Notes under the pieces: generated by a model
What the model saw: only the letters and a program-made list of their open reading frames with translations
Told to the model about the DNA's origin: nothing
Database searches by the model: none
Origin: a virus
DNA length: 26,652 nt
Reading direction: 5' to 3' (one strand)
IMG/VR virus record: IMGVR_UViG_3300021483_000005
Made by a program: the position numbers and the translations under genes
Shown: piece after piece, positions 1,373-22,882 of the stretch
How positions within the stretch are numbered: the stretch's first letter is position 1
Layout of the letters: each line of letters begins with the position of its first letter

Positions 1373-1480
1373 CTGTATCAGACGCACATATTTAATGTTC
1401 ATGCGAATTTTTTCGTTTATTAGATATTTTACTATACCCTCTTAAAAACATTTCGTTAAAATACATTATTTTGCATCTGA
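1373..1480. repeat. Pseudo-palindromic intergenic element, copy 1 (most diverged)
   Basis: Arms 1378-1408 and 1450-1480 (inverted) with 41-bp spacer; tgtatcagacgcacatattt matches tgcatgagacgctcatattt of copy 3 at 17/20. Confidence 0.7.
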
Positions 1481-1486
1481 AGAAGA

Positions 1487-1846
1487 ATGGATATGAGCGA
1501 ACAACAAAACGCATCTATAGCACATGAAGAAGGACTAGATATTCAAATTCGCATTAATTTCAATGGCCGAGATGATTTTATCGAAATTCCGGCTGATGGA
1601 GAATGGCATTTAATTGGCTATTATGACGGAAACGTGGTATTCGATAGCGTTGAAGTCCATAACAGAGCTCTTAATGAAGATGAAATCAGTAGTGCTTTTA
1701 CAATATTTGGAAATTATGCAGATAGAGTTTTATCAAAAGAAGAGACGGAAATCATCCATAAACTTCTCACCGACCGCCCAGAAATAAAAAGTTGGCAAAT
1801 TAAAAATAATATTTTTTACTTAGAAATTGATGAAAATAGAGATTGA
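1487..1846 (+). CDS. Hypothetical protein with a LamG/concanavalin-like fragment
   Basis: DGEWHLIGYYDG...FDSVEVHNRALNEDEI resembles LamG_3 signature segments. Confidence 0.6.
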   Translation: MDMSEQQNASIAHEEGLDIQIRINFNGRDDFIEIPADGEWHLIGYYDGNVVFDSVEVHNRALNEDEISSAFTIFGNYADRVLSKEETEIIHKLLTDRPEIKSWQIKNNIFYLEIDENRD

Positions 1847-2258
1847 TACGCCTCAAGAATTAAAGGAGGCTGTAGAATCAAATAGTCAAAAAATTCGGAA
1901 ATTAGAAGCACACATCTATAAGTTAGAAAAAACAATAAAAAAATCAGAGATTGATATTGAAGACTTAGTTCGGGCGGAATTTAATTATCCTGATGCGTGG
2001 GACACCTCGATTTATCCTACTGTATGGCATGTTTTGTGGGAAGAGTATTCTTGGATAAGAAAAAAGAGTGCTCCGATGCCATCAGAGAAAGCAGAACACA
2101 TCGTTAAAGGTTACTTAGGTTCAAGATTTTGGAAGAATCCCGATGATTTCTTTGATAGTTATTGTATTCATGAATTGGGGCAAGCACTACGTCAGATTAG
2201 TATCAGATGCTTATCTGATATAGTACAGCAATGGATAAAATTAAAAGAAGAAAAATGA
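1827..2258 (+). CDS. Hypothetical protein, MKIExxTP coiled-coil N-terminus
   Basis: 143-aa ORF; N-terminus shared with 2560 and 2752. Confidence 0.75.
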   Translation: MMKIEIDTPQELKEAVESNSQKIRKLEAHIYKLEKTIKKSEIDIEDLVRAEFNYPDAWDTSIYPTVWHVLWEEYSWIRKKSAPMPSEKAEHIVKGYLGSRFWKNPDDFFDSYCIHELGQALRQISIRCLSDIVQQWIKLKEEK

Positions 2259-2555
2259 AAATACTTAAAGCAGCAAAAAAAAATTGAAGTTGTGAAATTA
2301 GAACAGTTGAAAGAAGGTGATGAGATACTCTGGTCAAATCTTCGATGTAAAGTAATAACTATAGATAGATTTAAACGCAAAGTATATTTCGCACCTCATT
2401 CAACATCTGATAAGCTATTTGAAGGATCTTATTTGTATTATTATAGACTAATTAGCGGGGAAGAACAAAATGTCTGCTGTGCTTGCGGAAGAGAAATAGA
2501 GGAAGGTGAAATCTGTGATAGCTGTAAAGATGAAATTAAGAATTTCTTGATGTAA
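2255..2555 (+). CDS. Small protein with C-terminal zinc finger; apparent +1 frameshift at A9 run
   Basis: ATG at 2255 overlaps the previous stop (ATGA). Removing one A from 2275-2283 joins MKILKAAKK to IEVVKLEQL (ORF 2292..2555). Ends CCACG...CDSC. Confidence 0.6.
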
Positions 2556-2559
2556 AAGA

Positions 2560-2751
2560 ATGAAAATAGAAGTAATAACTCCATTAGATTTAGAAGATTT
2601 CATAAAGCGATTAGAAAGTTTAGAAGAAGATAATAAGCTTCATGACGGACTGCTCCAAGATGCCTTTGAAAATATTGATCAGTTAAAGAAGCGCTTAAAT
2701 GAGTTAGAAAAGCAAATAAAAGTTGAAGAAGATGAATTAAATACCAAATAA
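2560..2751 (+). CDS. Coiled-coil protein (MKIEVITP family)
   Basis: 63 aa, heptad pattern, paralog of 2752. Confidence 0.75.
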   Translation: MKIEVITPLDLEDFIKRLESLEEDNKLHDGLLQDAFENIDQLKKRLNELEKQIKVEEDELNTK

Positions 2752-2964
2752 ATGAAGCAAATAGAAATTGTAACACCTGGAGAATTTGATGATTTAAGAG
2801 ATGATGTATTGCGTAATGAAGGAGAAATAGATTCATGTATTCAGGAGCTTCAGGATTTGGTAATACGTGTAGATAAATTAGAAAAACGAATAGAAACGTT
2901 GGAACAAATTTTAAATAATATAAAAGAAGTAATGAATAATCAAGTTATGGAGAAAAGCAAATAA
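2752..2964 (+). CDS. Coiled-coil protein (MKQIEIVTP family)
   Basis: 70 aa, heptad pattern, paralog of 2560. Confidence 0.75.
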   Translation: MKQIEIVTPGEFDDLRDDVLRNEGEIDSCIQELQDLVIRVDKLEKRIETLEQILNNIKEVMNNQVMEKSK

Positions 2965-2965
2965 A

Positions 2966-3334
2966 ATGAAGAAAAATAAACAAGAATCGAAGAGTGTTAG
3001 AATTGATTTGGATGAAGAGTGGAAATTAGGTAGTGACTCTATGCAGTGGATTCTTTATAAGAAAGCTAAGGGCAAAGAAGATGAAATTTTAGATGAAGAA
3101 ATAGAATCAAAATCAACTTGGAAGAAAGAATTTGTACCAACTGGATATTTTACATCATTAGAAAATGCTTTAAAGGCGTATATTGATGCAAAATTGAGAA
3201 ATTCTGCTGCTAAATCAGTAAAAGAACTCTATGATTATCAACAAAATATTCTTTGGAGTTTAAATGAAGTCCTAAAGCCTTTTGAGATAGTAATCGGGAA
3301 TAATGCAAACAGTAATAGAAATGATGTAGATTAA
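2966..3334 (+). CDS. Conserved-looking viral protein (DUF5405-like)
   Basis: SDSMQWIL...GYFTSLENAL pattern recalled from phage proteins; the family label is tentative. Confidence 0.6.
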   Translation: MKKNKQESKSVRIDLDEEWKLGSDSMQWILYKKAKGKEDEILDEEIESKSTWKKEFVPTGYFTSLENALKAYIDAKLRNSAAKSVKELYDYQQNILWSLNEVLKPFEIVIGNNANSNRNDVD

Positions 3335-3347
3335 TATCAAAAAAAAA

Positions 3348-3752
3348 ATGTATTCGAGTCATCTTGAAGATATTGTTGTTTCTTTAGCACTTGCAAGAAA
3401 ACTAAAAGAATTGAATATAAAGTATCCTACTCCTTTTTATTGGCGTGTATGGGATGATGGATATAGTGATTGCGTAATAGGTGAATACGATTATGAAAAA
3501 CATCGTTCCAGAATTAAAGAAAGGGTGTCTACCTATACAAGTACTCAACTGATTGAAAAAATGCCACATTCTATCACATTCTTAGGAGATTATTTTTATT
3601 TTTCTATTTCGAAAAATGCAAGTGGTTATGAAGTATCTTATAAGTCAGAAATCGGTGAAGTCGGTCGACGTGATCGAAGACTTGAAGACGCACTTGCTGG
3701 AATGCACCTTTGGTTATTTGAGGCGAATATTGAGGTAGGTATTATCAAATAA
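3348..3752 (+). CDS. Hypothetical viral protein
   Basis: 134-aa ORF; VVSLALARKLKEL...FYW...YTSTQLIEKMP pattern typical of a phage family of unknown function. Confidence 0.75.
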   Translation: MYSSHLEDIVVSLALARKLKELNIKYPTPFYWRVWDDGYSDCVIGEYDYEKHRSRIKERVSTYTSTQLIEKMPHSITFLGDYFYFSISKNASGYEVSYKSEIGEVGRRDRRLEDALAGMHLWLFEANIEVGIIK

Positions 3753-3757
3753 AAAAA

Positions 3758-3952
3758 ATGTTTTGGAGTGAAGAGGAAATAGAAATATTAAAATCCTTAT
3801 GGAAGAAACCTGATATTACTGCAAAGATTATTAAAGAACGACACTTGCCTCATCGCACTATCAATGCCATACAGAAGAAAGCAAGTTCACTTGGATTAAC
3901 AAAAGAAAAAATAAAAATAGATTATGAAAAAGTAAATGAGATTATTATATGA
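3758..3952 (+). CDS. SANT/Myb-like helix-turn-helix protein
   Basis: WSEEEIEILKSLW...HRTINAIQKKASSLGL; coupled (ATGA) to the phosphoesterase. Confidence 0.65.
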   Translation: MFWSEEEIEILKSLWKKPDITAKIIKERHLPHRTINAIQKKASSLGLTKEKIKIDYEKVNEIII

Positions 3953-4728
3953 GAAATATTCTTTTATTAGGAGATTTGCATTGCGGTAGTACAGAAGGAT
4001 TATGGCATCCAGATTTTGTTACAAGAGAGGGTCAAAAGATAAAGTTATCTCCACTGCAGGAAGAATTATACGAAAAGTGGCTTCTTTTACAAGAAAAATT
4101 ACCAGATTATGAAGCAGTATTTTTGTTAGGTGATATTACTCATGGATTAGGTTCTAAAGAATTTGGTAAAGATGTAATTGATTGTGATTTACATGATCAA
4201 TTGCAGTGTGCAATTAAACTACTAAAACCAGTAACCAAAGGAAAGAAAGTAGTAGTAATTACAGGTAGTCGCTATCATTCTTCCATTGATTATGATATAG
4301 ATAGAGGCTTAGCAGAGGTTCTACATGCCAAATTTGGTGGTGCTATAAGTAATATTCGATTGAAAGGTACAGACGTTGTAATTAATATTGCACATGGTAT
4401 AGGCTCAAGACCTATTTATACAGGCACTCGCATGAATCAGGATGTGTTCAATGCTATCCTAACTGAACATCTATTGAAGATGCCTGAAGTTTCTGTGATT
4501 ATACGTGCACATTTCCATATTTTTAGTTATTTTGCAATTTACGGTAAACATTTTATTTATATTCCAGGATGGAATGCAATCAGAAAAGGTAGATTCATCA
4601 CTCGATGGTATTTTAGACAACCAGATATAGGTGCTGTCCTTTTGAGTATAGATAATGATAATAATGTATATGTAAAACCTTATCTTTTCAAGCTAAAAAG
4701 TGAACGTAAAAATATTTATGTATTATAA
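3949..4728 (+). CDS. Calcineurin-like metallophosphoesterase
   Basis: GDLHCG, LGDITHG, GSRYH, IAHG, RAHFH metal-binding motifs in order. Confidence 0.85.
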   Translation: MRNILLLGDLHCGSTEGLWHPDFVTREGQKIKLSPLQEELYEKWLLLQEKLPDYEAVFLLGDITHGLGSKEFGKDVIDCDLHDQLQCAIKLLKPVTKGKKVVVITGSRYHSSIDYDIDRGLAEVLHAKFGGAISNIRLKGTDVVINIAHGIGSRPIYTGTRMNQDVFNAILTEHLLKMPEVSVIIRAHFHIFSYFAIYGKHFIYIPGWNAIRKGRFITRWYFRQPDIGAVLLSIDNDNNVYVKPYLFKLKSERKNIYVL

Positions 4729-4733
4729 GAAAA

Positions 4734-5243
4734 ATGGAAGATAAAGATATTCAGGTTTTGGTATTTCATAGAGATAAGGACGATAAGAACTGGATATCAA
4801 GACTCGCTAATGGAAAGATAGCTATATTGCACCGAGCTGATCCTACTACTCCACAACCTAATGTTCCCTACCTTTGTAAGGTAGATGAAAAAGAAAAATA
4901 TGCAATAGCTTGGATTCAAAGTTTACATGCTTATCCACGTGTGATTATTACTCCACCGCCAAGACGTTTTGTGTATATAGGAGCGCCTGGTGAAAAGCCT
5001 GCAATTCATACAGATATACTCAGCATCTTTGATACTCATGGTTTAGAGTATCTATATGTTAAATATCCACAAGAAAATCGCGAAGAAGTTAAAGTTCCTT
5101 CGACAGATTATCGGGAAGTAGATATAGATTTAAGAATTAAAATAGGTAGCGAGAGTACAATCAAGTATTCGTGTACAATAAAAAGACCTCGTAATATGGA
5201 TGCTAAAACAATATTGGATGAAATTAAGAGCAAGATTGAATAG
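4734..5243 (+). CDS. Hypothetical protein
   Basis: 169-aa ORF tiling the operon. Confidence 0.75.
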   Translation: MEDKDIQVLVFHRDKDDKNWISRLANGKIAILHRADPTTPQPNVPYLCKVDEKEKYAIAWIQSLHAYPRVIITPPPRRFVYIGAPGEKPAIHTDILSIFDTHGLEYLYVKYPQENREEVKVPSTDYREVDIDLRIKIGSESTIKYSCTIKRPRNMDAKTILDEIKSKIE

Positions 5244-5247
5244 ACTA

Positions 5248-5496
5248 ATGAGGTTCAGAGATAATAAGAAGGATGAAATCATGAAAGAAATTTTAAAACT
5301 TATTCGTGAACGTAAAGAACTACGCCAAAATTTAGAAGAATTGCAATTACAAATGAAAGATATAAAAGACGAAGCTGAAGATGTTTACGAGGAAATCAAG
5401 AAGATAGAGAGTGCAATGGAATTAAATGAACGAAAGGTAAATGAATTAGTAGAGACTATCGAAAAGGAATGTGATATTGAGAATTTATATAGATGA
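5248..5496 (+). CDS. Coiled-coil protein, paralog of 5493..5816
   Basis: Start moved from 5200 to ATG 5248 (after upstream stop); IRERKEL...NERKVNELVE...DIENLY. Confidence 0.7.
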   Translation: MRFRDNKKDEIMKEILKLIRERKELRQNLEELQLQMKDIKDEAEDVYEEIKKIESAMELNERKVNELVETIEKECDIENLYR

Positions 5497-5816
5497 AAAC
5501 GAATATGAATGAAAAAAAAAAATGGGTTCAAAAAAAAAAAAGGTTGAGTGATGAGTTTAAAGAAAAGATTGAGGATATCATCTGGGAACGAGTGGAATTA
5601 CTTAAAGATTTAAGAGATAATGAGATGCTGATAAATAGCACAATAAAAGAACTTCAAAGGTATTGTAAAGATTATAGAAAAACGAAGAAAGAATTGGAGT
5701 CAAATGAAAGAAGCCTCATGGAATTGATAGAGAGTCTTGATGATGATCTCGATATTAAGTCTATTTATAAAGATCCAATACCAAATCCCCTCTCAGACTT
5801 AACCGATATATGGTAG
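5493..5816 (+). CDS. Coiled-coil protein, paralog of 5248..5496
   Basis: IWERVEL...NERSLMELIE...DIKSIY. Confidence 0.7.
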   Translation: MKTNMNEKKKWVQKKKRLSDEFKEKIEDIIWERVELLKDLRDNEMLINSTIKELQRYCKDYRKTKKELESNERSLMELIESLDDDLDIKSIYKDPIPNPLSDLTDIW

Positions 5817-5912
5817 AAAAGATAATAAATAAAATTGAGAATAAATTAGATAGTGCATTTAAGACTCTAAATGATATAAATAACAAAATAAAACAAATTA
5901 AGGAGGACATGG

Positions 5913-6107
5913 ATGACTCAGGAATTCCAAATAACAGGAACAAGATCACTAAATGAAGATATCTACATAAGAATCTCGCCAATGCTTTTCAGTTATCAGC
6001 ATAATTCAGTCTTCATGAGAGAAGCACAATTGCTTGCTAACATCCTGCGCAAATACCTACCAGCTCGTACTTATAATTATTTAAAAGATATTATGGTTAA
6101 GGAATGA
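5913..6107 (+). CDS. Hypothetical protein
   Basis: 64 aa, GGAGG ribosome-binding site just upstream. Confidence 0.65.
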   Translation: MTQEFQITGTRSLNEDIYIRISPMLFSYQHNSVFMREAQLLANILRKYLPARTYNYLKDIMVKE

Positions 6108-6271
6108 CTTGGAAATATTTTCCATTTAAATATCTCGGAAAAATTATTACTATCCTTGGAATAGTTTTAATGCTAAAATACTGGGATACTGAATTTCCAT
6201 TGTTTCTTGCTTGGATATTCATAATATTTGGAGTGGGTTTAGTAGAAATCAAAGAACTTTGGTATGAATAA
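6104..6271 (+). CDS. Small two-TM membrane protein
   Basis: Read by hand: MTWKYFPFKYLGKIITILGIVLMLKYWDTEFPLFLAWIFIIFGVGLVEIKELWYE; fills the gap exactly (ATGA overlap, next ATG at 6272). Confidence 0.7.
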   Translation: MTWKYFPFKYLGKIITILGIVLMLKYWDTEFPLFLAWIFIIFGVGLVEIKELWYE

Positions 6272-6523
6272 ATGTCATGGTTATGGCTGCATGTAAAACA
6301 CAAATGTCCTTTTTGTAATACTGAAAATCATCTATTGAAGTATTATGTTGTTTCTGATGAGAGTAGTTTCATAGATGTTGGAGAGTATGTACCAAATAAT
6401 TTAGATAGCAATATTGGATTCGTTACAGTAGTTGGACATTGTGAGAGTTGTGAAGGAGATTATCAATGTAAAATTGGAATCAGAAAATCAAGGCTGACGA
6501 ATATTATTATTTACGAGGAGTAA
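6272..6523 (+). CDS. Zinc-finger protein
   Basis: CPFC...CESC. Confidence 0.7.
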   Translation: MSWLWLHVKHKCPFCNTENHLLKYYVVSDESSFIDVGEYVPNNLDSNIGFVTVVGHCESCEGDYQCKIGIRKSRLTNIIIYEE

Positions 6524-6524
6524 T

Positions 6525-6728
6525 ATGCAAGAAATCCTTAAATTTAAAGGAAAAGAAAATACCGATATTTCAGTAATGGCTACTGATCAATTGATTGAGC
6601 TGATTCTAGACGAAAGATCATTAAACGATATTAGTGTTATATTTTTATATTGGAATGAATGGGATAAGATAGCAGATTTTTTAAAGAAAGTGAGGCGTAA
6701 GAGAAATGCTAAAATTCATAATTTATAA
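6525..6728 (+). CDS. Hypothetical protein
   Basis: 67-aa ORF in operon tiling. Confidence 0.6.
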   Translation: MQEILKFKGKENTDISVMATDQLIELILDERSLNDISVIFLYWNEWDKIADFLKKVRRKRNAKIHNL

Positions 6729-6900
6729 AAACGAAGATGAGTATATATTGATTATAGAGTATGAAGATAGAGCCGAGAGACTTATAGCAAAAGACACCAG
6801 AAGTTTGATTCAAGTAATGGCTGATACCACATTATATAATTTCGAAGGTAAGAGTAAATATTTTGAGCAGTCTCATCAAGCGAAGATAGAAATAATATAG
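6706..6900 (+). CDS. Hypothetical protein
   Basis: 64-aa ORF in operon tiling. Confidence 0.6.
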   Translation: MLKFIIYKNEDEYILIIEYEDRAERLIAKDTRSLIQVMADTTLYNFEGKSKYFEQSHQAKIEII

Positions 6901-6904
6901 ATAT

Positions 6905-7288
6905 ATGAAGTTAGGATTTTCGGACTCTAAAATAAAAATGACTGAATATGATTATCCTCTATGTAATTTATGCGGTAGGACTGCTCATTGTTTAGTGTTG
7001 TTTCATGATAATAAAAACAATAAAACTTATGCAACAACTCGTTGTCCTGAATGTGTGGATAAACCAGAACCGCAATTGAATAATAAAGTTCCCTATAATG
7101 ATATACCATTGTGGTATGGCTCTTACGCCTTTCCTGAAGTTAAAGTAGATAGCGTGGACTCTCCATATATGTTAACTCGTGCAGAAGTTCGATCGCGTCT
7201 TACTCCAAATGTAGTTCTCTTACGTAATCCATTTGAAAACAAGGGTCATTTGAAAGATGATGAAAAAAGAAGTAGAAGTCCTGAATAA
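6905..7288 (+). CDS. Hypothetical zinc-binding protein
   Basis: CNLC...CPEC. Confidence 0.65.
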   Translation: MKLGFSDSKIKMTEYDYPLCNLCGRTAHCLVLFHDNKNNKTYATTRCPECVDKPEPQLNNKVPYNDIPLWYGSYAFPEVKVDSVDSPYMLTRAEVRSRLTPNVVLLRNPFENKGHLKDDEKRSRSPE

Positions 7289-7940
7289 TGAGAATAAAAT
7301 TATTTATATAGATTCACGTGAACAAAATAAAGATGTACAGCATCTGTTCAATTGGCAATCTGATTTTCCAGTAGAAATTAAAAAATTAGAGTTAGGGGAT
7401 ATAGTTTTTGATGGTTGCTTAATAGAACGAAAGACCTTTAATGATTTCGCTCAGAGCATCAGGAAAGAAGATTTTTGGAATAAGTTATATCAAGCAAAAG
7501 AAGCTTATTCTAATGGAGTTTTTGTGTGGATTGATACTAATGAATATGAGAAACTAAAAGAACTTAAATATAGTCGTAATCCAAAGCTATTAGTGAATTC
7601 GATACTAGGAGCAAAAGCAGCATTAGATGCTAATGGAATTATATGGAGAGAATTTGATAAAGCAGAGGCATCTGAATATTTCTATACTTATTTCAAACGA
7701 TTAACAGACACTCATAACTATACTCCCAAGCCTGTAGTAAAAAAGAAAAATAAATCATGGACTGAGCTTAGGATTCAAACGCTTATGAGTGTACCAGGGA
7801 TAGGATATAATACAGCTGTTAAATTACTTTCATTATACAAGACAATTGAAAAAATCATAGAAATTTCAAAAGATTCTAATTCTAAAATTATGCAAAATGT
7901 TAAGAGGATTTTTGTAGAAAATGAACAAAGAAATAATTGA
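7257..7940 (+). CDS. ERCC4/XPF-family nuclease with C-terminal HhH
   Basis: IYIDSREQ, LELGDI, LIERKTFNDFAQSI (GDxnERKx motif) and VPGIGYNTAVKLL HhH. Confidence 0.9.
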   Translation: MMKKEVEVLNNENKIIYIDSREQNKDVQHLFNWQSDFPVEIKKLELGDIVFDGCLIERKTFNDFAQSIRKEDFWNKLYQAKEAYSNGVFVWIDTNEYEKLKELKYSRNPKLLVNSILGAKAALDANGIIWREFDKAEASEYFYTYFKRLTDTHNYTPKPVVKKKNKSWTELRIQTLMSVPGIGYNTAVKLLSLYKTIEKIIEISKDSNSKIMQNVKRIFVENEQRNN

Positions 7941-8511
7941 TTGGGAACGGAAAGGGAATTTAGTTAAGTTCTATCTCGGTAAAAATGGAGAACAATGGGG
8001 TGATGATTGGGATGATGTTCCTTGGGAGCACAATGCAGGTCGGGTCTATGATAAGTATATTGAAGGATATAAAACCATTGCTTTTCCCTTCGAATATAAT
8101 ATTTACGAACCCCGGCATTCTTGTTCTAAAAGAGACTTAATTAATAGGATTGTACCGTGTTTAGTTGCGTCAAGAAGGCATTTTATTAACTTTCAAGATG
8201 CATGGGAAGATAAAGACGCTATAAAATTTTATTTTGGAGATAGAGTACATGCAGAACAAGGTGTAGTAATTGAAGAGGAATATCCTGAAGTCACAGCTCC
8301 CGAATTGGGATTAGATATTGATTATAAAACATTTAGAAAAGGAAATCATAAATATTTAGAATTAAATGACTATATCTCTGGTTTAATAATACATTATCAT
8401 TTAGCTATTCAGAAAAAAATTATCACTGCTCTCTCAGATCACCAGCTTAAGCGATTAATTAAACTATGCACTCACGAACTTCAACAAAGAAAAAAAATCC
8501 GAAAATTTTAG
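7921..8511 (+). CDS. Hypothetical viral protein
   Basis: WGDDWDDVPWEHNAG motif typical of an uncharacterised phage family. Confidence 0.75.
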   Translation: MNKEIIDWERKGNLVKFYLGKNGEQWGDDWDDVPWEHNAGRVYDKYIEGYKTIAFPFEYNIYEPRHSCSKRDLINRIVPCLVASRRHFINFQDAWEDKDAIKFYFGDRVHAEQGVVIEEEYPEVTAPELGLDIDYKTFRKGNHKYLELNDYISGLIIHYHLAIQKKIITALSDHQLKRLIKLCTHELQQRKKIRKF

Positions 8512-8536
8512 GAACGCATGCTTATTAGAATTAAGA

Positions 8537-8791
8537 ATGAGTGATTTTAAAATAAAGGTAGAAGAAGACACATTCTGGAAAGAAATAAAGAAAGAAAGAA
8601 TTATAGGTAATATTTGCTGTCCAATATGCAAAACTATCCTGATACTTATTCCAGCAGTAGATTTATCAATCGCATACTGTCCAAATTGTAGAAAATATTT
8701 TGAACTTATGAAGAAGTGTAAAAGATGTGGAATAGAATATAGTGTTAATGAAATACATTTCTGTAGTAGTTTGCTTACTAATGAAATTTAA
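8537..8791 (+). CDS. Zinc-finger protein
   Basis: CPIC...CPNC...CKRC. Confidence 0.7.
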   Translation: MSDFKIKVEEDTFWKEIKKERIIGNICCPICKTILILIPAVDLSIAYCPNCRKYFELMKKCKRCGIEYSVNEIHFCSSLLTNEI

Positions 8792-11189: not shown

Positions 11190-11211
11190 TTTTATTCAAA
11201 AGTTGAAGGAT

Positions 11212-15184: not shown

Positions 15185-15481
15185 ATGTTTGAGAAGACAT
15201 ATAAAAACATTGGAAAATATGTATATAAGTGGTTAGAAGGTATCGGTCGTTACCCTCTCCTTGTTTTATTTATTCTTTCCTTTGTTCTTGGCTATTATCT
15301 CTTTCTCATAATGTCTTTATGTCTCGGTGAGAAGTCTTCAGATAGAATTAAGAGATTTAAAAAACTGCTCGAAGAATTCGAAGATTGGATTGCTGATTGG
15401 ATAGATCTAGAAGAGTTATTAATGGTTTACTTGTTTATATATATTATTTTAATAATAGGTCTTATAATTGGGAGTTTGTAA
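15185..15481 (+). CDS. Small membrane protein (two amphipathic+TM units)
   Basis: Two hydrophobic stretches, each preceded by a Trp-containing amphipathic helix. Confidence 0.7.
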   Translation: MFEKTYKNIGKYVYKWLEGIGRYPLLVLFILSFVLGYYLFLIMSLCLGEKSSDRIKRFKKLLEEFEDWIADWIDLEELLMVYLFIYIILIIGLIIGSL

Positions 15482-15503
15482 TAGTAAAGCGATAGCAGAA
15501 AAA

Positions 15504-15659
15504 ATGCTTGAAGAAGAAGAAAAAGATTGGATAGATAGATGGATGGATCACATCGGAAGGCTCTTATGCCTGATAGCAGTTACAGGTAGTCTACTACTAC
15601 TTATTACCATGATATTTCTTGTATTTTATTGGGGCATAAAAATATTTTTTGGTGTATAA
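15504..15659 (+). CDS. Small membrane protein
   Basis: Start moved to ATG 15504; DWIDRWMDHIG followed by a TM segment. Confidence 0.65.
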   Translation: MLEEEEKDWIDRWMDHIGRLLCLIAVTGSLLLLITMIFLVFYWGIKIFFGV

Positions 15660-15660
15660 A

Positions 15661-15801
15661 ATGTTTGAAAGAATTGGAAATTGGATAGATAAATGATGGG
15701 ATACTATCATGTCGGGAGCGATGCTAATAATCTTGTTTTATGCGCTTATCATCCTCTCAGCATTCGTGATAATTTTCATTAGAAAATGTCTTGGATACTA
15801 A
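15661..15801 (+). pseudogene. Small membrane protein with in-frame TGA
   Basis: MFERIGNWIDK*WDTIMSGAMLIILFYALIILSAFVIIFIRKCLGY; the TGA at 15694 aligns with Trp of paralog 19353. Confidence 0.6.
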
Positions 15802-15808
15802 TTCCAAA

Positions 15809-17737
15809 ATGAGAAGCGAAGAAGTAATAAAATATCCAAAATTAGGTTATTTAAGAGAGTCGCCTTATGGTGGTAGAGAATTAGTCGGTAAATTAATATT
15901 TTGGGAAGAAAAGCGTGATGGGTGTTTACATTCGGATACTAAAATTATTACGAATATAGGAGAGCTTAGAATTAATGAAGTAATCAAACAAAGAGATTCG
16001 ATTTTAGTACTAACATATAATTGGCGTAAAAATATGTTTGAATATCAACCAATTCTTGGTTTCATTAAACGCAGACACACGCATCCATTTGTAACTGTTC
16101 ATCTACGACGTTCAAAGAAGCTTTCTTGGACTATTACTGTTACCGAAAATCATTTATTTGCTACCGAAGAAGGTTGGAAAGAAGCAAAAAAATTAAAAGC
16201 AGGAGATAGAATATTCATGATTGGAAGGGAAATACCTTATATTCAAAGACAAATAATATTAGGAACTCTTTTAGGAGATGGATCGATTTACATAGCACCA
16301 TCGGGAAATTGTGGATTTTCAATTCTTCATTCTGAAGCGCAGTGGGATTATCTTTTTCTGATCCAGAAACTTTTGGGTGATCTAGTTAAGATGGATAATC
16401 ATGAGCATCGAGGAGGATACCCGGGAAGCAAACTAGAAAAACGCTTGACTTCACGTATTAATCCTGAAATATCTTCATTTTTGAGAGAATACTGCTTAGT
16501 AAACGAGAAAAAACAAATTAACCAAAAATGGGTGAATGAATTATCTCCGATAGCAATAGCATTTTGGTATATGGATGATGGAAGCTTTGACAGTCATAGT
16601 TCGTCTGCCTACGGTCAAGCTACATTTCATACCCAGTCGTATTCAATTCATGAATGTGCTCTTCTAATTGCTGCATTAAAAAGAAAATTTAATATAAATG
16701 CAAAACGAGGAAAAGATGGAGCTCTCCATTTGGACACTGAGAGCTCTAAAATACTTTTTAATCTAATTGCACCATATATTCCCGCATCAATGCAGTATAA
16801 ATTACCCCAAGAATTTCAAACTGGGCATTCGTATTGGGAAAGTTATAAATTCCCAACTGAATCATTTCAGCTTATTCCTATGAAAGTTAAAAAGGTTACT
16901 GAACCGAATAAGTGGAAGCATATAAGAAAAAATAGTCGAGAATATGATATAGAAACAGCAAATCATAATTATTTTGCAAACGGAATCTTGGTACATAATT
17001 CCAATATACGTGCTTTCATAGATGAGAACGATAACCTTCAGTTTGGAAGCAGAAATAAAATACCAGCAAGTGATGATTTGTTAAAATCAATTAAAAATAC
17101 AGGATATGATGCTATTCTAAGAACAGCTCTTTATACGGAAAAGTATCAATGGAATCATGATATAATAGTGTTTTTTGAATTATTACAAAAGGGTAAAAGT
17201 CCTTCTCGTATAGAATATCATGAAAAAGATGATATTGCGGTATTCGATATTTATGATATAAATGGAGGTTGGTGGAATTACACAAGAATCTATCAATTCT
17301 GCTATCAATGGAAACTACCAATTGTTAAACTATGGGCTGTCTCTTCATATTCTACGATTGATAAATTAGAAAAACAAATAGAAAAAATGCTTGACCGTGC
17401 AAAGAAAGAAAATCGAGAAGGTGTAGTCTTCAAGTCTTATGAAGGTGGTAAAGCCTATTTCTTTAAAGATCGGTTAGATATACCACACGAAAAAGACATC
17501 GAAATTGATATGGATAAAGATGCTCCTAAATATCCAGAACTACCAGAAGCAGAAGTTATGAATGAAATGCAGAAAGTTTTAGATGAAATAGGATATGAAC
17601 AATTTAGAGATAAGAAGATAGCTATGCCTTTGATCGCTCGATATGTAGCAGCAGAAGCAAAAAGAAGAATGTGTTCTGTACCAAAGGGATTATATTCATA
17701 TTATTTAGAAAAATTAAAGGAGATTGGATATGTTTAG
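15809..17737 (+). CDS. ATP-dependent RNA ligase-like nucleotidyltransferase containing an intein
   Basis: Spliced product has motif I EKRDG/SN, FGSRN, VFFELL, AVFDIY, REGVVFK, FFKD; 283 aa after splicing from ATG 15809. Confidence 0.85.
   Translation: MRSEEVIKYPKLGYLRESPYGGRELVGKLIFWEEKRDGCLHSDTKIITNIGELRINEVIKQRDSILVLTYNWRKNMFEYQPILGFIKRRHTHPFVTVHLRRSKKLSWTITVTENHLFATEEGWKEAKKLKAGDRIFMIGREIPYIQRQIILGTLLGDGSIYIAPSGNCGFSILHSEAQWDYLFLIQKLLGDLVKMDNHEHRGGYPGSKLEKRLTSRINPEISSFLREYCLVNEKKQINQKWVNELSPIAIAFWYMDDGSFDSHSSSAYGQATFHTQSYSIHECALLIAALKRKFNINAKRGKDGALHLDTESSKILFNLIAPYIPASMQYKLPQEFQTGHSYWESYKFPTESFQLIPMKVKKVTEPNKWKHIRKNSREYDIETANHNYFANGILVHNSNIRAFIDENDNLQFGSRNKIPASDDLLKSIKNTGYDAILRTALYTEKYQWNHDIIVFFELLQKGKSPSRIEYHEKDDIAVFDIYDINGGWWNYTRIYQFCYQWKLPIVKLWAVSSYSTIDKLEKQIEKMLDRAKKENREGVVFKSYEGGKAYFFKDRLDIPHEKDIEIDMDKDAPKYPELPEAEVMNEMQKVLDEIGYEQFRDKKIAMPLIARYVAAEAKRRMCSVPKGLYSYYLEKLKEIGYV
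15923..16999 (+). mobile_element. Intein (359 aa) with LAGLIDADG homing endonuclease
   Basis: Block A CLHSDTKI, block B VTENH, LAGLIDADG motifs IILGTLLGDGS and IAFWYMDDGS, blocks F/G EYDIETANHNYFANGILVHN followed by Ser(+1). Confidence 0.95.
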
Positions 17738-17945
17738 CAAGGTGATACTAAAAATATATAAATTAATGTCTCTCGTAGCTACTAAATATTTGGAATCATA
17801 TTTGACTGCTCTTAAAAAAAAAAGAAGGAGTCACTTAGAAGGAGAAATTCAACATATAGAAAGTGAAATAGAAGACCTCGATTGGAATGTGATACGTATA
17901 AACAACTTTAAACCCATACGAGATAGAAAAAATGAAAATAAATAG
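17730..17945 (+). CDS. Hypothetical protein
   Basis: ORF 17724..17945 with likely ATG start at 17730. Confidence 0.55.
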   Translation: MFSKVILKIYKLMSLVATKYLESYLTALKKKRRSHLEGEIQHIESEIEDLDWNVIRINNFKPIRDRKNENK

Positions 17946-18124
17946 AGAGGATATATCATGGCAAGAAGAACGACCTGATTGTGAATTTCTATGGGGGGAT
18001 TGGGAAGAAATATCCTGTTGCTGTCCAATGTGTGATTTATGAAACCAATTTCTTAGGTGAACGAAGACTTAAAGAAACTAAAACATTCAAGTTAGTGGAG
18101 TTAGGCAATGAAAAAGAAGAATGA
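17932..18124 (+). pseudogene. Paralog of 18121..18294 with one extra G in a G6 run
   Basis: Removing one G at 17993-17998 gives MKINREDISWQEERPDCEFLWGIGKKYPVAVQCVIYETNFLGERRLKETKTFKLVELGNEKEE, which aligns gap-free to the next gene. Confidence 0.75.
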
Positions 18125-18294
18125 ATGGAAATAAATATTTTAAATGGGTTAAAGAAGAGCCACAATGCGAGCTTATATTTTTAGCCGGCAATGTATATCC
18201 TTCATATATTCAGTGTGTTCTATTTGAAACTAATGCTATTGGGGAAAGAAGATTTGTAGAAACAAAGAAATTCAAATTAGTGGAGGTTGAGTAA
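18121..18294 (+). CDS. Small hypothetical protein
   Basis: Read by hand, 57 aa: MNGNKYFKWVKEEPQCELIFLAGNVYPSYIQCVLFETNAIGERRFVETKKFKLVEVE. Confidence 0.75.
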   Translation: MNGNKYFKWVKEEPQCELIFLAGNVYPSYIQCVLFETNAIGERRFVETKKFKLVEVE

Positions 18295-18297
18295 TCA

Positions 18298-18402
18298 ATG
18301 ATGGAAAATCATCTATGGGAAGTAATTAGAGATCATGATTCTTTGATTTACTATAGTGTAGGATTGATAGTTGGTTATATGATTCATTACTTGTTCTCTT
18401 AA
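18298..18402 (+). CDS. Small single-TM protein
   Basis: Read by hand, 34 aa: MMENHLWEVIRDHDSLIYYSVGLIVGYMIHYLFS. Confidence 0.5.
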   Translation: MMENHLWEVIRDHDSLIYYSVGLIVGYMIHYLFS

Positions 18403-18435
18403 TATAATTATATAAAAAGAGAGGAGGTGGTATGA

Positions 18436-18773
18436 ATGGAAGAGGGCGTGACAATTAGGACTTCTTATTTTGGTCTTTTCTATACTGTTTTGTTTAGTGT
18501 AATGGGCTATTTCGTCTATGGTGGTATCGAGGGCTGATGGCAATGTCAGCTTTATGTCTTTTCTATGATTTGGCATTGTGTTTGAGCGTGATTCCGTTTG
18601 GCGGAAGTATCATTCAAGCAGTCATAATGAACTTGATTTCACACAAGTTTTTCATCATACTGAATATATATCCAAGCTGGCTAACGACCTGTGTATTTTG
18701 GTGCTATCTGATTTGTGGTATAGTCATAACAATATTAGTAACTGCTATCGTAATAGCTAATTTAGATAAATAA
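18436..18773 (+). CDS. Multi-pass membrane protein, apparently split by a 1-nt deletion
   Basis: GGAGGTGG ribosome-binding site; MEEGVTIRTSYFGLFY...YGGIEG joins ORF 18537..18773 (L-MAMSAL...) if one G is added at 18531-18533. Confidence 0.55.
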
Positions 18774-18780
18774 AAGTTTG

Positions 18781-19356
18781 ATGCTATCAGACAGTGAAAT
18801 TTTAGAAGAATTGGAAAAAGGAAATATAATAATAAAACCATTCAGAATAAAGCAACTAAATCCGAATAGTTATGATGTACGATTAGGTGAATATTATGCA
18901 GTAGAAAATGTTCTTGATCATTATATACTGCCATTCGATGAAAATAGCATAAGAAATCACTGGAAAATTAAAAAGGCGAATAAAGAAATTGAAATCCATC
19001 CGGGAGAAACTATCCTAGCTCATACTCAAGAAATAATAGGAGGTCGTCATAATATCGCAAGTAAAATGAATGCAAGAAGTTCATTAGGAAGATTGGGACT
19101 ATCTGTTTGTAAATGTGCAGGATTTGGCGATGTGGGATTTATAAGTAAGTGGACAATGGAAATTACTAATCATTCACAACATGCTTCTATTCGCCTTCCT
19201 ATTGGTATGCGAATAGCCCAAATTTCATTTTTCAGAACTGGTAAAGTTTTAAAAGAATACAAAGGTAAATATGGTCAAGGAGAATGGACACCTGAAGATA
19301 TGATTCCTAAATTATGGAAAGATAAAGATATAATAAATGGCATGAATTTAAAATGA
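18781..19356 (+). CDS. dcd: dCTP deaminase (dUTPase-fold)
   Basis: MLSDSEI, NPNSYDVRLG, ARSSLGRLGL, AGFGDVGF, GMRIAQISF, YKGKY. Confidence 0.92.
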   Translation: MLSDSEILEELEKGNIIIKPFRIKQLNPNSYDVRLGEYYAVENVLDHYILPFDENSIRNHWKIKKANKEIEIHPGETILAHTQEIIGGRHNIASKMNARSSLGRLGLSVCKCAGFGDVGFISKWTMEITNHSQHASIRLPIGMRIAQISFFRTGKVLKEYKGKYGQGEWTPEDMIPKLWKDKDIINGMNLK

Positions 19357-19496
19357 AAGATTTATTTGAGAGATTTGGTAATTGGTTCGATAAATGGAAA
19401 GAGACTATTTTCCTCTTCTTATTTTCAGCATTGCTTACTTGGTGTGTTGTATTCCTGTCAATCTATTCGATATTGTTTTTCATGGGCAAGGTATAA
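19353..19496 (+). CDS. Small membrane protein (FERxGNWxDKW family)
   Basis: Read by hand: MKDLFERFGNWFDKWKETIFLFLFSALLTWCVVFLSIYSILFFMGKV; ATGA overlap with dcd. Confidence 0.75.
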   Translation: MKDLFERFGNWFDKWKETIFLFLFSALLTWCVVFLSIYSILFFMGKV

Positions 19497-19513
19497 AGAG
19501 AAGCGAAAAAAAA

Positions 19514-19642
19514 ATGACTATTATCTGTCCTTATTGTGGTAAGAGTTTTGATGTAGCATTAGAAGTTAGGAATGAATATACAGGAATTACGATTGTAGTA
19601 TGCCCGTTTTGTAATAAATATTTTGAATATAGTAGTATTTGA
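19514..19642 (+). CDS. Zinc-finger microprotein
   Basis: MTIICPYCG...VCPFCNK; start moved to ATG 19514. Confidence 0.7.
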   Translation: MTIICPYCGKSFDVALEVRNEYTGITIVVCPFCNKYFEYSSI

Positions 19643-19657
19643 TAGGAGGTAGATATT

Positions 19658-20014
19658 ATGCCAAGACCAAAAGAAGAAGTGATGGACTATGCAGATGATG
19701 AATTTCTTACTTATCTCGAGGATCATCTGAATTACATAGAAGCTTATACATATCGATTGAAGATGATGATGACTGTATACAGAGAAGTCAAGGAAGAATA
19801 TGGAGAGGGATTAGGCTGGATACCTTCAAAAGAGATTATAGACAGTGTCAATAATTTGAAGAAAAATCTTGATGCGTTTTTCTTTGCAGTTCTTGCAGAT
19901 CAACGTTCTTTGATATCGTCACTAATGATGTGGCGTAAATCAAAAGCTGCTAAGAAAAAGAAGAGTAAGAAAAGTGAGAAAAAGCGAGAAGAGATGGATC
20001 CTTCCATACAATGA
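19658..20014 (+). CDS. Hypothetical protein with basic C-terminal tail
   Basis: 118 aa, GGAGGT ribosome-binding site. Confidence 0.8.
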   Translation: MPRPKEEVMDYADDEFLTYLEDHLNYIEAYTYRLKMMMTVYREVKEEYGEGLGWIPSKEIIDSVNNLKKNLDAFFFAVLADQRSLISSLMMWRKSKAAKKKKSKKSEKKREEMDPSIQ

Positions 20015-20691
20015 TAAGGAATATAAGAATAATGGGCTTGAATAAACAATCGGGCAATATGTACCCGTTTGTAACCCATACTTGGAATCCGATAAGAGGT
20101 CGCTGTCCACATCAATGTTGCTACTGCTATATGAAACGATTTAGAGTTGGCAAACTAAGATTAGAAGAAAAAGAACTTTCGAGTGATCTTGGCAGTTCAA
20201 ATTTTATTTTTGTAGGAAGTTCAACCGACATGTGGGCAGCAGATGTACCGAGTGAATGGATACGAAAAGTACTTGAACATACGAGTAAATATAATAATAC
20301 TTATTTATTTCAAACAAAATATCCAATCCGATTTCTCGAATTCATTAGGAGTTTTAATCAAGATTGTATCCTTGGTACAACTTTAGAAACAAATAGAAAC
20401 TATGATCTAAGTATAGCACCTCTACCAATAGAAAGGTGGATGCAATTCAAATTATTAAATGACTATAAAGTTAGAATGATGGTAAGTATAGAGCCTATAA
20501 TGGACTTCGATTTAGAAAATTTCCTCTATATGCTGCGTAAAATCAAACCAGAATTCATAAGTATAGGTGCTGATAGTAAAAAGAATGATCTCATCGAGCC
20601 ATCCTCTAAGAAAATAAAAGAACTGATTTATCATCTAAAAGGATTCACAAAGGTAATAGTAAAGAAGAATCTGAATAGATTGTTGCAATAA
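20011..20691 (+). CDS. DUF5131-like (Gp37/Gp68-type) radical SAM protein
   Basis: TWNPIRGRCPHQCCYC (CxxxCxxC), FVGSSTDMW, YLFQTK, LGTTLET, VSIEPI. Confidence 0.8.
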   Translation: MIRNIRIMGLNKQSGNMYPFVTHTWNPIRGRCPHQCCYCYMKRFRVGKLRLEEKELSSDLGSSNFIFVGSSTDMWAADVPSEWIRKVLEHTSKYNNTYLFQTKYPIRFLEFIRSFNQDCILGTTLETNRNYDLSIAPLPIERWMQFKLLNDYKVRMMVSIEPIMDFDLENFLYMLRKIKPEFISIGADSKKNDLIEPSSKKIKELIYHLKGFTKVIVKKNLNRLLQ

Positions 20692-20692
20692 A

Positions 20693-20944
20693 ATGTCGTC
20701 ATCTAAAATAAGAGTTTATTCTTGTGAGAATTGTTATTTGGAATTTTATTATGAAAATCATATTACACACTGTCCTTTCTGTGGAAATAAAGTAAAGTAT
20801 GTTGGATCAATTCAAGAAAACGAAATTGAAGGACCGATCTATACATTAAAATACTCCACCGGAGAGAGAATGCAAAAGAAAATAGAGGAAGAAGAAGCGA
20901 TTAGAGAGGCAGAAGAATCTTGGTATTTATGGGAGGATAATTAA
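20693..20944 (+). CDS. Zinc-ribbon protein
   Basis: CENC...CPFCG. Confidence 0.7.
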   Translation: MSSSKIRVYSCENCYLEFYYENHITHCPFCGNKVKYVGSIQENEIEGPIYTLKYSTGERMQKKIEEEEAIREAEESWYLWEDN

Positions 20945-20948
20945 AAAA

Positions 20949-21560
20949 ATGTATTGGAAAGTCCCAAATTATTTAAAAAAGTATGTAAGAATACAAGATA
21001 TGCTAAGAAATATATTTAGACCTTGTGATTGTGGAGAAGAACTAAAGAAGTGCATTAGAGATAAAGAATACTTTGCGAAAAGAGCAGAATCATTATCGAG
21101 AGCTTTAGCAAAATCTATAAACCTTCCCGAAGTGCCATGTCCATTAGAAGGGATGGGAGAAGTCAACCCGTGGAAACTTATAAGTAAATATGGTAAATAT
21201 GATATACTAACCGCTGATAAATATTATTACACACTACCACTAAATACATGGATAAAATTTTTAACTTCCATTCAAACTCAAGTAGAAAAGATATTGCCGA
21301 AATGGCGAGAGGATGTTGCTGACTGTGATGATTATGCATTACTTATGGCGTCATTTGTAGCTGCTGTATTTGCAAAAAATCCGTGGTTTGACCACCAAAT
21401 TGCATTTGCTATTACTTGGTCTCGTTCACATGCATATAACTCATTCATAACATCTGAAGGCACGTGGGAAATATACGAGCCTCAATCTAACGCTATAGTT
21501 GGACGGTTAGGTAAAACTACAGGAATTTATAAAACAGAAAAGATATGGTTTATGGGATAG
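20949..21560 (+). CDS. Transglutaminase/papain-like cysteine protease-fold protein
   Basis: DCDDYA...HAYN...YEPQ gives a Cys-His-Glu triad. Confidence 0.7.
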   Translation: MYWKVPNYLKKYVRIQDMLRNIFRPCDCGEELKKCIRDKEYFAKRAESLSRALAKSINLPEVPCPLEGMGEVNPWKLISKYGKYDILTADKYYYTLPLNTWIKFLTSIQTQVEKILPKWREDVADCDDYALLMASFVAAVFAKNPWFDHQIAFAITWSRSHAYNSFITSEGTWEIYEPQSNAIVGRLGKTTGIYKTEKIWFMG

Positions 21561-21916
21561 TGAGAATATTCGGTCTACTTGTGATAGGTATTTTACTAAG
21601 TGTTTCTTTGAGTCAGTTTCTAATGATGGATTCAACTGATTCTCATCCTTATATTGATGGTACTTATGTCTGTCGAGACTTCAGTAGAGACCTAATTCTT
21701 TCAGCTTCTAAATATCACATTTATCTTGATTACGTTTATATACCAGAAAAGAATCATATAATGGTTGGATTATTCAATCCTCTTGAACATTCAATCGAAA
21801 TCATAGAGCCTCAAACTGATGAAATTGTAGAATATGTAAAAGAAAATAATAAACACTATATCAGAATACCAGTGTGGAATGAATGTCTTTATTACTCAAA
21901 CATTAAAATTGCATGA
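21545..21916 (+). CDS. Membrane-anchored transglutaminase-like protein
   Basis: N-terminal TM/signal, YVCRDFS...NHIMV...IIEPQ. Confidence 0.6.
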   Translation: MVYGIVRIFGLLVIGILLSVSLSQFLMMDSTDSHPYIDGTYVCRDFSRDLILSASKYHIYLDYVYIPEKNHIMVGLFNPLEHSIEIIEPQTDEIVEYVKENNKHYIRIPVWNECLYYSNIKIA

Positions 21917-22016
21917 GACGCTCATATTTGCGATTTAACGCAATGTTTTCAATAAGACAATATAAATGTATCACCACCTAAAAATATTGCGTCTATGGCC
22001 AAATATGGAGGAATTT
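21909..22016. repeat. Pseudo-palindromic intergenic element, copy 3
   Basis: Arms 21914-21944 and 21986-22016, 41-bp spacer; tattgcgtctatggccaaatat is 21/22 identical to copy 2. Confidence 0.85.
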
Positions 22017-22023
22017 TGAGGCT

Positions 22024-22764
22024 GTGATTCAAATCTCAATAAAAAATAAAATATTTAGAGATGTGTTAGAAACTATTGTTCCTATACGTGAAGAATCTAT
22101 ATTGAAATTCACTAAAGAAAGCTTGAGTTCTAAAATTACTGACTATGGTAATGTGGCATTAGTGGATGTTTCTATTCCTACTGGATTATTCAATGACTAC
22201 GTTTTGGATGAAGATATCGAAGTGGGATTAAACGCTAAGAAGCTGCTACTCTATACCAAATTAAGTGATCCTGAAGATAATATTAAGATAGAAATTACAG
22301 ACAAATTCAAGATGCTTCTCGGTAATTTCGAGATTGATATGGACATCATTGACCCCACTTACATGACTTCAGTTTCAAACCTTCCTGATAAATTCGAATG
22401 TAAATGCTTAGTTGATATAGAAGAAATTAGAAAAATCACACGTGCAGCAAATCAAATTCGAAATGACACTCTCATTTTCGAACTCGATAATCTTCATGAG
22501 AATTTAACTATTTCTACAGAGAGTGAAGAGGAATCCATTAGAATTGAAACTTATGTTGTTGGCACCTCCGATAAAAAATCTACCCATAACTTAAAATCAG
22601 CCTATCCTGTTGATTTCATTCTTGGTATTACTAACACCTTTCATAATTTGGGTATGCAAGAAATAGGACTGAGTTTCGGTAATGATTTCCCTATGCAACT
22701 GTCAAGTCCTTTACATGAAACCGGTAAGGTAGTTTATTATATTGCACCTCGTGTAATTGACTAA
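22024..22764 (+). CDS. pcn: Archaeal-type DNA sliding clamp PCNA
   Basis: 246 aa; NVALVDVSIP...FNDY, VGLN, SAYPVDFI, FGNDFPMQL, YYIAPRV. Confidence 0.92.
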   Translation: MIQISIKNKIFRDVLETIVPIREESILKFTKESLSSKITDYGNVALVDVSIPTGLFNDYVLDEDIEVGLNAKKLLLYTKLSDPEDNIKIEITDKFKMLLGNFEIDMDIIDPTYMTSVSNLPDKFECKCLVDIEEIRKITRAANQIRNDTLIFELDNLHENLTISTESEEESIRIETYVVGTSDKKSTHNLKSAYPVDFILGITNTFHNLGMQEIGLSFGNDFPMQLSSPLHETGKVVYYIAPRVID

Positions 22765-22773
22765 TTAAAAATT

Positions 22774-22882
22774 TTGCATGAGACCCTCATATAACGCCGT
22801 CATTGAAATATTTCTGCCTTAGGTATATAAAACTATTACCTGTATAATTTTATTGCGTCTATAAGTGAATATGAGTAAATGG
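22774..22882. repeat. Pseudo-palindromic intergenic element, copy 4
   Basis: Arms 22779-22809 and 22852-22882, 42-bp spacer; ttgcatgagaccctcatat and tattgcgtctat shared with copy 3. Confidence 0.85.

Follow-up and report, generated by a model that had tools for sequence, protein, structure and literature searches.

A repeated, dyad-symmetric intergenic element as the probable operon-head promoter cassette of a lineage of uncultivated vent viruses

The IMG/VR virus record IMGVR_UViG_3300021483_000005 holds a DNA stretch of 26,652 nucleotides (hereafter the window) in which exactly four copies of an intergenic element of ~115 bp occur. They lie at about 1368-1486, 11844-11968, 21905-22020 and 22769-22888 (copies 1 to 4), share one orientation on the + strand, and each sits after the stop codon of one gene and ahead of the ribosome-binding site (RBS) and start codon of the next. 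Judged from its sequence and layout, the element is probably the standard operon-head cassette of this viral lineage, a polar promoter built on a dyad-symmetric core of archaeal type. To our knowledge, next to nothing has been described of the transcription signals of uncultivated vent viruses.

The four-copy pattern does not originate by chance. An earlier note on the window had described a palindrome in four copies, each with a 31-bp arm, a 41/42-bp spacer and an inverted 31-bp arm, and both the positions and this geometry were borne out. The unit of ~104 bp that it gave was drawn too narrowly, as the conserved unit measures ~115 bp and starts 5 nt further left, with TTGCA. The eight arms share on average 17.2 of 31 positions, compared with 8.65 ± 0.56 for random sets of the same geometry drawn from the window, the highest of 20,000 such sets reaching 12.4. 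Left arms compared with right arms share 16.75 positions (8.55 in random sets). Since the spacer is also conserved, the whole unit aligns directly across the four copies, with 67% column identity. A profile of the window copies finds exactly four window sites (E 1e-17 to 1e-25). The same four are recovered (E 4e-12 to 7e-8), with no other window match at E<1, by a profile that draws on nothing but 13 copies of a second clade of related viruses, a test independent of how the sites had been selected in the earlier note.

The expectation that related viruses would carry the element was confirmed. A 22-nt right-arm pattern located it in eight IMG/VR contigs from hydrothermal-type sample series. 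Five of these, taken in full, proved by profile search to hold 4-8 copies apiece. The window copies and those of the five full related contigs make up the set of 35 copies (alignment A3) used below; across these 35 copies and six genomes the spacing is kept to ±1 nt, in line with the fixed geometry proposed from the window. The second clade, reached by a search with NrdD, has 38-39% G+C, an NrdD that is 72% identical, and full-length copies of equal length. A left-arm pattern, which is independent of the right arm, matched only 15 stretches among 2.9 million IMG/VR contigs: 13 in contigs of the two clades and 2 in new contigs, one of which holds a full-length copy. No true copy was found in a scan of 185,579 species, each represented by one genome: the right-arm pattern matched 54 times, and under the element profile the similarity stops at the pattern in every case, so that all are ascribed to chance. 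A distant blastn search with copy 2 of 50,697 GenBank phage and archaeal virus records likewise returned nothing similar. By these sequence searches, the element family is confined to a single lineage of uncultivated vent viruses.

Read in the sense direction, the consensus of the 35 copies opens with a left outer box, TTGCAySAGAynnnCATAT, followed by an inner box, TCAnnnnAA, with a T5-7 run. The core reads GG..ATATAA..TATA..CC and leads into an A/T run and the right inner box, ATTGCGTCTAT. Next comes AAATAT, succeeded by TGCGTCTCATGCAA in about half of the copies and otherwise by an RBS; the right outer box is found in only about half of the copies, an RBS standing in its place in copies 3 and 4. 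Blocks conserved across the clades are TTGCAySAGAynnnCATAT, TCAnnnnAA-TnTTTT, ATATAA..TATA..CC, AAAATT and AAATAT. The second clade keeps the left outer box, CAAAnTTTT, the AT core, AAAATT and AAATATG but not the inner ATTGCGTCTAT, so that AGACGC is not an invariant core. This hexamer had been noted earlier as occurring twice in one arm, 20 bp apart, and does so (as GCGTCT at 11930 and 11950) in the right arm of copy 2; the nested inverted pair reported for copies 2 and 4 is also present, as AGGT...ACCT/TCCT around the AT core. Distances are fixed: AGA and the inner box are separated by 71-72 nt, the central T lies 26-27 nt away from that box (ATTGC), and 48-49 nt separate the mirrored inner ATTGC-type boxes in 34 of the 35 copies. 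At columns 60-67 of the alignment, 22 of the 35 copies carry TATATAAA or AATATAAA, and about 10 carry TTTATATA or ATTATATA at the mirror position. Conservation is strongest in the left outer box and in the right inner box, an asymmetry that follows gene direction.

The dyad symmetry itself is readily detected by profile. The full profile also scores on the opposite strand of these sites, with E-values as low as 4e-10. On that strand, a right-half profile recognizes the left half of 20 of the 35 copies, always at an offset of -2 to 4, and a left-half profile recognizes the right half of 10, mostly at an offset of 62-63; outside the elements, half-profile matches number only 1-3 in 254 kb. Mirrored columns show no covariation, their complementarity being 26.3 observed against 28.7 expected from column composition (57 pairs), and few mirrored pairs have more than one pair type. 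Folds of the four copies are equally unremarkable against shuffles (DNA z -0.98 to +0.87; RNA ordinary in three of four; overall z -2.7 to +0.9). The two halves match a common consensus, without evolution towards pairing. From the lack of covariation and the ordinary folds it follows that the arms act as DNA boxes and not as stems, which agrees with the protein-binding boxes suggested earlier.

The placement of the copies is polar. Most of the 35 begin -24 to +24 nt from the stop codon of a co-oriented gene, and the next start codon comes 2-65 nt after the element, usually with a GGAG, GGTG or GAGG Shine-Dalgarno motif ahead of it. A divergent gene on the left is essentially never seen (none in the window), and the genes headed by copies in the relatives include those for tail fibres and other structural proteins. 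Every relative has the element at the orthologous junctions, where the copies are 78-96% identical, often above the flanking coding DNA. Orthologues of copy 3, for instance, are 92.9-96.5% identical where the flanks reach 83-87%, and in the most distant genome 77.6% compared with 67-69%; orthologues of copy 2 are 89-92% identical, with a right flank at 78% in two of three comparisons. The element is under purifying selection. Genes immediately downstream of an element usually have GGAGG or GGTG, unlike several internal genes that start straight after an A8-A10 run without a Shine-Dalgarno motif (window 2275-2292, 3339-3348, 3751-3758 and 13000-13007).

Of the three functions that the earlier note had put forward, a viral promoter fits best, while an origin and a recombination site found poor support. 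As a promoter, the cassette would work as follows. The upstream box TTGCAySAGAynnnCATAT would lie ~60-80 nt ahead of the predicted start, and the simplest guess is that this outer box is the site of an upstream regulator. The inner box and its T5-7 run, just upstream of the core, could end the transcripts of the preceding operon; because archaeal RNA polymerase stops at oligo-T, the run could block read-through. The AT-rich TATA region between GG and CC, which matches the archaeal TATA consensus, would be the core promoter, the A/T run just before ATTGC would occupy the position of a promoter-proximal element, and ATTGCGTCTAT would serve as an initiator box 26-27 nt from TATA, which matches how far archaeal start sites lie from TATA. 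Sense starts are thus predicted near 1450-1455, 11927-11932, 21986-21991 and 22852-22857, and the resulting 5' leaders of ~30-60 nt would carry the RBS. In the mirror half, the ATTGC-type boxes would be arranged around one and the same TATA region. Since this is the geometry of archaeal bidirectional promoters with a BRE-TATA-BRE layout (BRE, transcription factor B recognition element), antisense starts are possible near 1405, 11881, 21941 and 22806. The inner ~60 bp may be read as a symmetric core promoter whose sense side is under stronger selection. From this arrangement we infer that the element is an active promoter, where it starts transcription, that transcripts end at the T-run and that a regulator binds the outer boxes. 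A depletion of T-runs was tried as evidence for termination and rejected, as the 39 T-runs against 117 A-runs on the coding strand are what base composition predicts.

Two small proteins are candidates for regulators of the element. The product of 3758-3952 matches PHROG 323, 'transcriptional regulator' (E 1.5e-5), and the 122-aa product of 2966-3334 matches PHROG 154, 'replication initiation protein' (E 7e-15); a solved relative was sought for both and found for neither.

Several observations weigh against a polar archaeal-type promoter. Activity and direction are both deduced from geometry alone, no clear purine-rich BRE adjoins the TATA region, and the canonical TTTATATA reads on the antisense strand in 22 of the 35 copies. 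The centre also fits a sigma-70 layout, TTGmAA-N17-TATAAw, and KDO-8-P synthase, Ro60/TROVE, ClpP and YopX look bacterial or phage-like. The left outer box is strongly conserved and has no assigned factor. Finally, the element cannot be the sole promoter type, given that element-free intergenic gaps exist: gaps of 113-153 nt at 1100-1212, 11190-11342, 12891-13006 and 15660-15790 contradict the earlier statement that the element fills the only gaps of ~100 bp. Elsewhere, at 18396-18436, a palindromic TATA-like TAATATAATTATATAAAAAG resembling the element core, without arms, precedes an RBS and the ATG at 18436; it may be an element-free promoter.

The four window copies have the following parts. 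Copy 1 (nhmmer E 1.8e-17; E 7e-8 with the clade-2-only profile, on both strands) has its left outer box at 1373-1391, the left inner box with a T6 run at 1399-1414, the AT core at 1420-1439, a right inner box of the variant CATTTCGTTAAA at 1445-1460 and the right outer box at 1465-1485, as placed in alignment A3. It directly precedes the ATG at 1487 and heads the gene block 1487-11819. Copy 2 (E 6e-23) is the most symmetric, with a left outer box at 11849-11867, TCATTGCAA and a T7 run at 11875-11890, a core with TTTATATA at 11896-11915, ATTGCGTCTAT at 11927-11937 and the right outer box ATATGCGTCTCATGCAA at 11942-11962. Its right half is matched on the opposite strand by the left-half profile (E 1.7e-4, offset 63), and it is followed by an RBS, GGAGG, and the ATG at 11988 of the gene block 11988-21916. 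The 60 nt 5' of it (11784-11843) are 87-92% identical in relatives although homology breaks further upstream; in the relatives an open reading frame (ORF) ends at a TAA just before the element, and the window's YopX ORF stops sooner, at 11819.

Copy 3 (E 5e-25) consists of TTGCATGAGACGCTCATAT at 21909-21927, the inner box and T-run at 21935-21950, a core AATATAAA..TATCACC at 21956-21975 and AAAATATTGCGTCTAT at 21981-21996, with the RBS GGAGG where the right outer box would be. Searched on the opposite strand, the right-half profile recovers its left half (E 6e-8, offset 1). Copy 3 heads only the PCNA gene, from the GTG at 22024. Copy 4 (E 9e-24; opposite-strand half match E 5.7e-6) carries TTGCATGAGACCCTCATAT at 22774-22792, the inner box at 22800-22815, the core GGTATATAAAACTATTACC at 22821-22840 and ATTTTATTGCGTCTAT at 22847-22862. 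After it come the RBS GGTGGGGTG and the TTG at 22892 of a 35-aa, very basic ORF that runs to 22999 and is the only gene before a convergent junction.

Signals on the host domain of the virus are mixed. Its PCNA is closest to archaeal PCNAs, its short XPF is closest to that of Aeropyrum, and the nearest cellular-labelled NrdD comes from a Woesearchaeota metagenome-assembled genome. When 20 kb of the window were compared by BLAST with 401 genomes from that genome's phylum, a DPANN sample that includes the unpublished genomes G341, G330, G404 and G368, only short AT-rich matches appeared, and eight of the closest (91-100% identity) were without flanking CRISPR repeats. On the other side, the KDO-8-P synthase (KdsA) of a relative is 60-64% identical to bacterial enzymes, Ro60/TROVE, ClpP and YopX are typical of bacteria and phages, and the terminase has only distant matches (23-27%), to Thermus and Meiothermus phages. 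Overall, we hold the archaeal reading to be roughly twice as probable as the bacterial one. The choice of host does not move the core promoter out of the central segment; what changes is where transcription starts and what the right arm does.

An operon-head promoter of a bacterial host is an alternative that concerns the same DNA, and we regard it as unlikely. The left inner box (TTGCAA/TTGAAA) would be a -35 and the central TATAAw a -10, 17 nt apart; transcription would start near the conserved CC, and the right arm would be a conserved mRNA 5' leader. Instances are TTGAAA-N17-TATAAA in copy 4 and TTGCAA-N17 in copy 2 and in copy G002_5078 of a relative, and the bacterial or phage look of the genes just listed points the same way. 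The pattern of conservation, however, is wrong for a -35, as the AA that follows never varies, whereas TTG survives in only about half of the copies and has disappeared from most of those of clade 2. Most copies also lack the T at position 6 of the -10, so no element passes a sigma-70 scan. Sigma-70-like sites were fewer than in shuffles and intrinsic terminators were not enriched; none stands at operon ends or at the convergent junction 22999-23055. The archaeal-type PCNA and short XPF argue in the same direction, as does the nrdD gene inside the second operon, where a T-run and TTTATATG (12972-13007) are centred ~28 nt before the ATG at 13007 without an RBS; by its sequence, this start fits the archaeal leaderless type.

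A more elaborate version of the archaeal promoter cassette, which we consider doubtful, would make the element an insulator-promoter module whose symmetric core fires both ways and whose outer boxes are bound by a virus-encoded factor, either as DNA or as the shared 5' leader of sense and antisense RNAs. Such a factor would put all operons under one switch or keep transcription from running from one into the next. We know of no genome-wide multi-operator system of this kind in archaeal tailed viruses.

Sites resembling replication origins, in which a viral initiator would bind inverted boxes around an AT-rich unwinding core, as in archaeal origins with origin recognition boxes (ORB) and a duplex unwinding element (DUE), are very improbable. 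The dyad symmetry around the AT core is real, the 122-aa protein encoded at 2966-3334 bears a replication-initiation annotation, and the relatives possess a non-coding cluster of three elements. Yet the element occurs in 4-8 dispersed copies per genome, polar to the downstream gene and abutting its RBS, its asymmetry of conservation tracks gene direction, and the copies of relatives also precede structural and tail-fibre genes. Pfam scans of the neighbours identified no Orc1/Cdc6 or other initiator gene adjoining any window copy. The cluster of the relatives is a stretch of ~600 bp without long ORFs that holds three copies in alternating orientation, at L039:12573-13208 (G002 52576-53189), G004 24810-25591, G005 1058-1565 and G003 65853-66547. 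The window lacks this cluster, which could act as a control region, a bidirectional promoter hub or an origin.

Similarly slight is the chance that the element is a miniature inverted-repeat transposable element or a dedicated recombination site that has spread through the genome, with PCNA as an exchangeable cassette between two copies. Its arms do resemble terminal inverted repeats, and synteny breaks at 10 of 14 element junctions compared with 68 of 184 others (Fisher p 0.02), a weak test given that the genomes are non-independent and the element junctions wider than the rest. Homology with four relatives also ends exactly at the right edge of copy 4 (22873-22884), and the region downstream differs in every relative. 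Against this, the flanks show no target-site duplications or direct repeats, and no clean empty site was seen at any of the orthologous junctions. Window copies share 13-22 of 31 arm positions (42-71%) while orthologues are 78-96% identical, so that the copies must be old and fixed. In addition, the order element-PCNA-element is kept in all five relatives that cover the locus, down to 53% protein identity (a search of IMG/VR for more distant PCNA loci found none), and an RBS replaces the right arm in many copies. Homologous recombination between copies may still occur as a by-product of promoter cassettes. The least credible explanation is a hairpin of RNA or single-stranded DNA (a terminator, processing site or cruciform) formed by pairing of the arms, for which the RNA fold of copy 2 (z = -2.7) and a short TTGCG/CGCAA stem ahead of the T-run in copy 3 might speak, and against which stand the covariation and fold results above, the lack of any Rfam match and the absence of the right arm from about half of the copies.

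The virus is recognized as tailed by the gene set of the window and its related contigs, and belongs to an uncultivated deep-sea/vent lineage. The window has a G+C content of 31-37% and a long + strand gene array (12-22999) that converges with two large - strand tail-fibre-like genes (23055-26585). The array encodes a RecA/RadA-like ATPase, an ERCC4/XPF nuclease with an HhH domain, an exonuclease, DUF47/PhoU, ClpP, YopX, NrdD, an RNA ligase split by a LAGLIDADG intein, a dCTP deaminase and PCNA; related contigs add a terminase, a portal, an HK97-type capsid protein, an ATP-dependent ligase, ThyX and a sugar-modification cluster. Rfam and ARAGORN gave no match on the window, and searches of a phage collection with the window (megablast) and PCNA (tblastn) gave nothing.

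Some features of these genomes stand apart from the element. The intein at 15922-16999 is absent from all five relatives, whose homology jumps from 15921 to 17000, and therefore represents a presence/absence polymorphism in the lineage. An adjacent pair of small ORFs at 17981-18294 are paralogues that share a 91-nt repeat, 70% identical (18010-18100 and 18195-18285). In one relative (L039:6916-8605, - strand), a gene for a Ro60/TROVE protein has a tmRNA-like ARAGORN call beside it and overlapping the gene end, which suggests a tRNA-like RNA that could be a Y-RNA/YrlA-type partner of the protein. Another relative has an auxiliary sugar and metabolic cluster (L042:1035-10926; G003 41032-50926) with genes for KDO-8-P synthase, a transaldolase-CBS fusion, a short-chain dehydrogenase/reductase, a zinc alcohol dehydrogenase, ThyX, a radical-SAM/SPASM protein and glycosyltransferases.

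If the element is a promoter cassette, it marks operon starts and would allow gene blocks to be predicted in metagenomic contigs. It could also serve AT-rich archaeal systems as a compact candidate promoter and insulator, and be used as a bait for the regulator or basal factors that bind it.

The earlier statement that the element matches no nameable class was too strong, as promoter-bearing intergenic repeats are documented in the haloarchaeal virus HF2 (PMC8707807) and composite promoter-terminator cassettes, the PeSLs (promoter early stem-loop), in T4-like phages (PMC2839356, PMC4122927). The element is homologous to neither, and the nearest analogue known for it is the HF2 type of repeat. 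The repeats of HF2 and other Haloferacalesvirus members are, like the element, conserved sequences at the heads of transcription units whose sequence and position are kept among related viruses. Both have an upstream motif, a TATA motif and a conserved motif ~26 nt further downstream, which in HF2 holds the start site. In the class I intergenic repeats of HF2, TATA begins at -26 and the start site lies inside the conserved downstream motif; TATA and this motif are both essential, and basal activity does not require the conserved motif upstream (PMC8707807). Some of these repeats fire weakly in reverse, and the viruses have a complex bidirectional promoter region (PMC8707807). HF2 repeats, however, are 58 or 29 bp long and GC-rich in the haloarchaeal manner, whereas the vent-virus element is AT-rich and ~115 bp long with dyad symmetry throughout; promoter activity is experimental for HF2 and inferred for the element. 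A search of the phage collection found no sequence similarity, which makes the two analogues and not homologues.

PeSLs of T4-like phages are likewise short repeated regulatory cassettes at the borders of gene blocks that combine an end and a start signal (PMC2839356, PMC4122927). Variable genes adjoin them, much as indels and replacements abut copies of the element. A PeSL, in contrast, joins a bacterial sigma-70 early promoter to a stem-loop terminator, whereas the element has no supported stem-loop and no sigma-70 match that passes. Recombination between PeSL copies has been proposed in T4-like phages (PMC2839356, PMC4122927); a comparable shuffling role of the element has weak support (p ~0.02). 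Archaeal ORB/DUE origins share with the element inverted boxes that flank an AT-rich core. They are single sites by an initiator gene, unlike 4-8 dispersed, gene-polar sites that abut RBSs, and the ORB G-string is not seen in the boxes of the element (TTGCAySAGA..CATAT, ATTGCGTCTAT), as compared without an ORB model.

A parallel to the inner symmetry comes from Pyrococcus furiosus, in which pairs of sense and antisense starts lie 49 bp apart and arise from one shared TATA with BRE-TATA-BRE symmetry (PMC6640164). The central AT-rich TATA is common to both, and starts ~49-50 bp apart compare with mirrored ATTGC boxes 48-49 nt apart in the element. Those of P. furiosus are ordinary host promoters with incidental symmetry and without extended conserved arms, in contrast to a repeated, conserved unit of 115 bp. 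What is new in the vent-virus element is thus a length about twice that of HF2 repeats, dyad symmetry over the whole length and a fixed geometry, and its size and symmetry make the idea of a bidirectional archaeal promoter testable on a conserved natural example.

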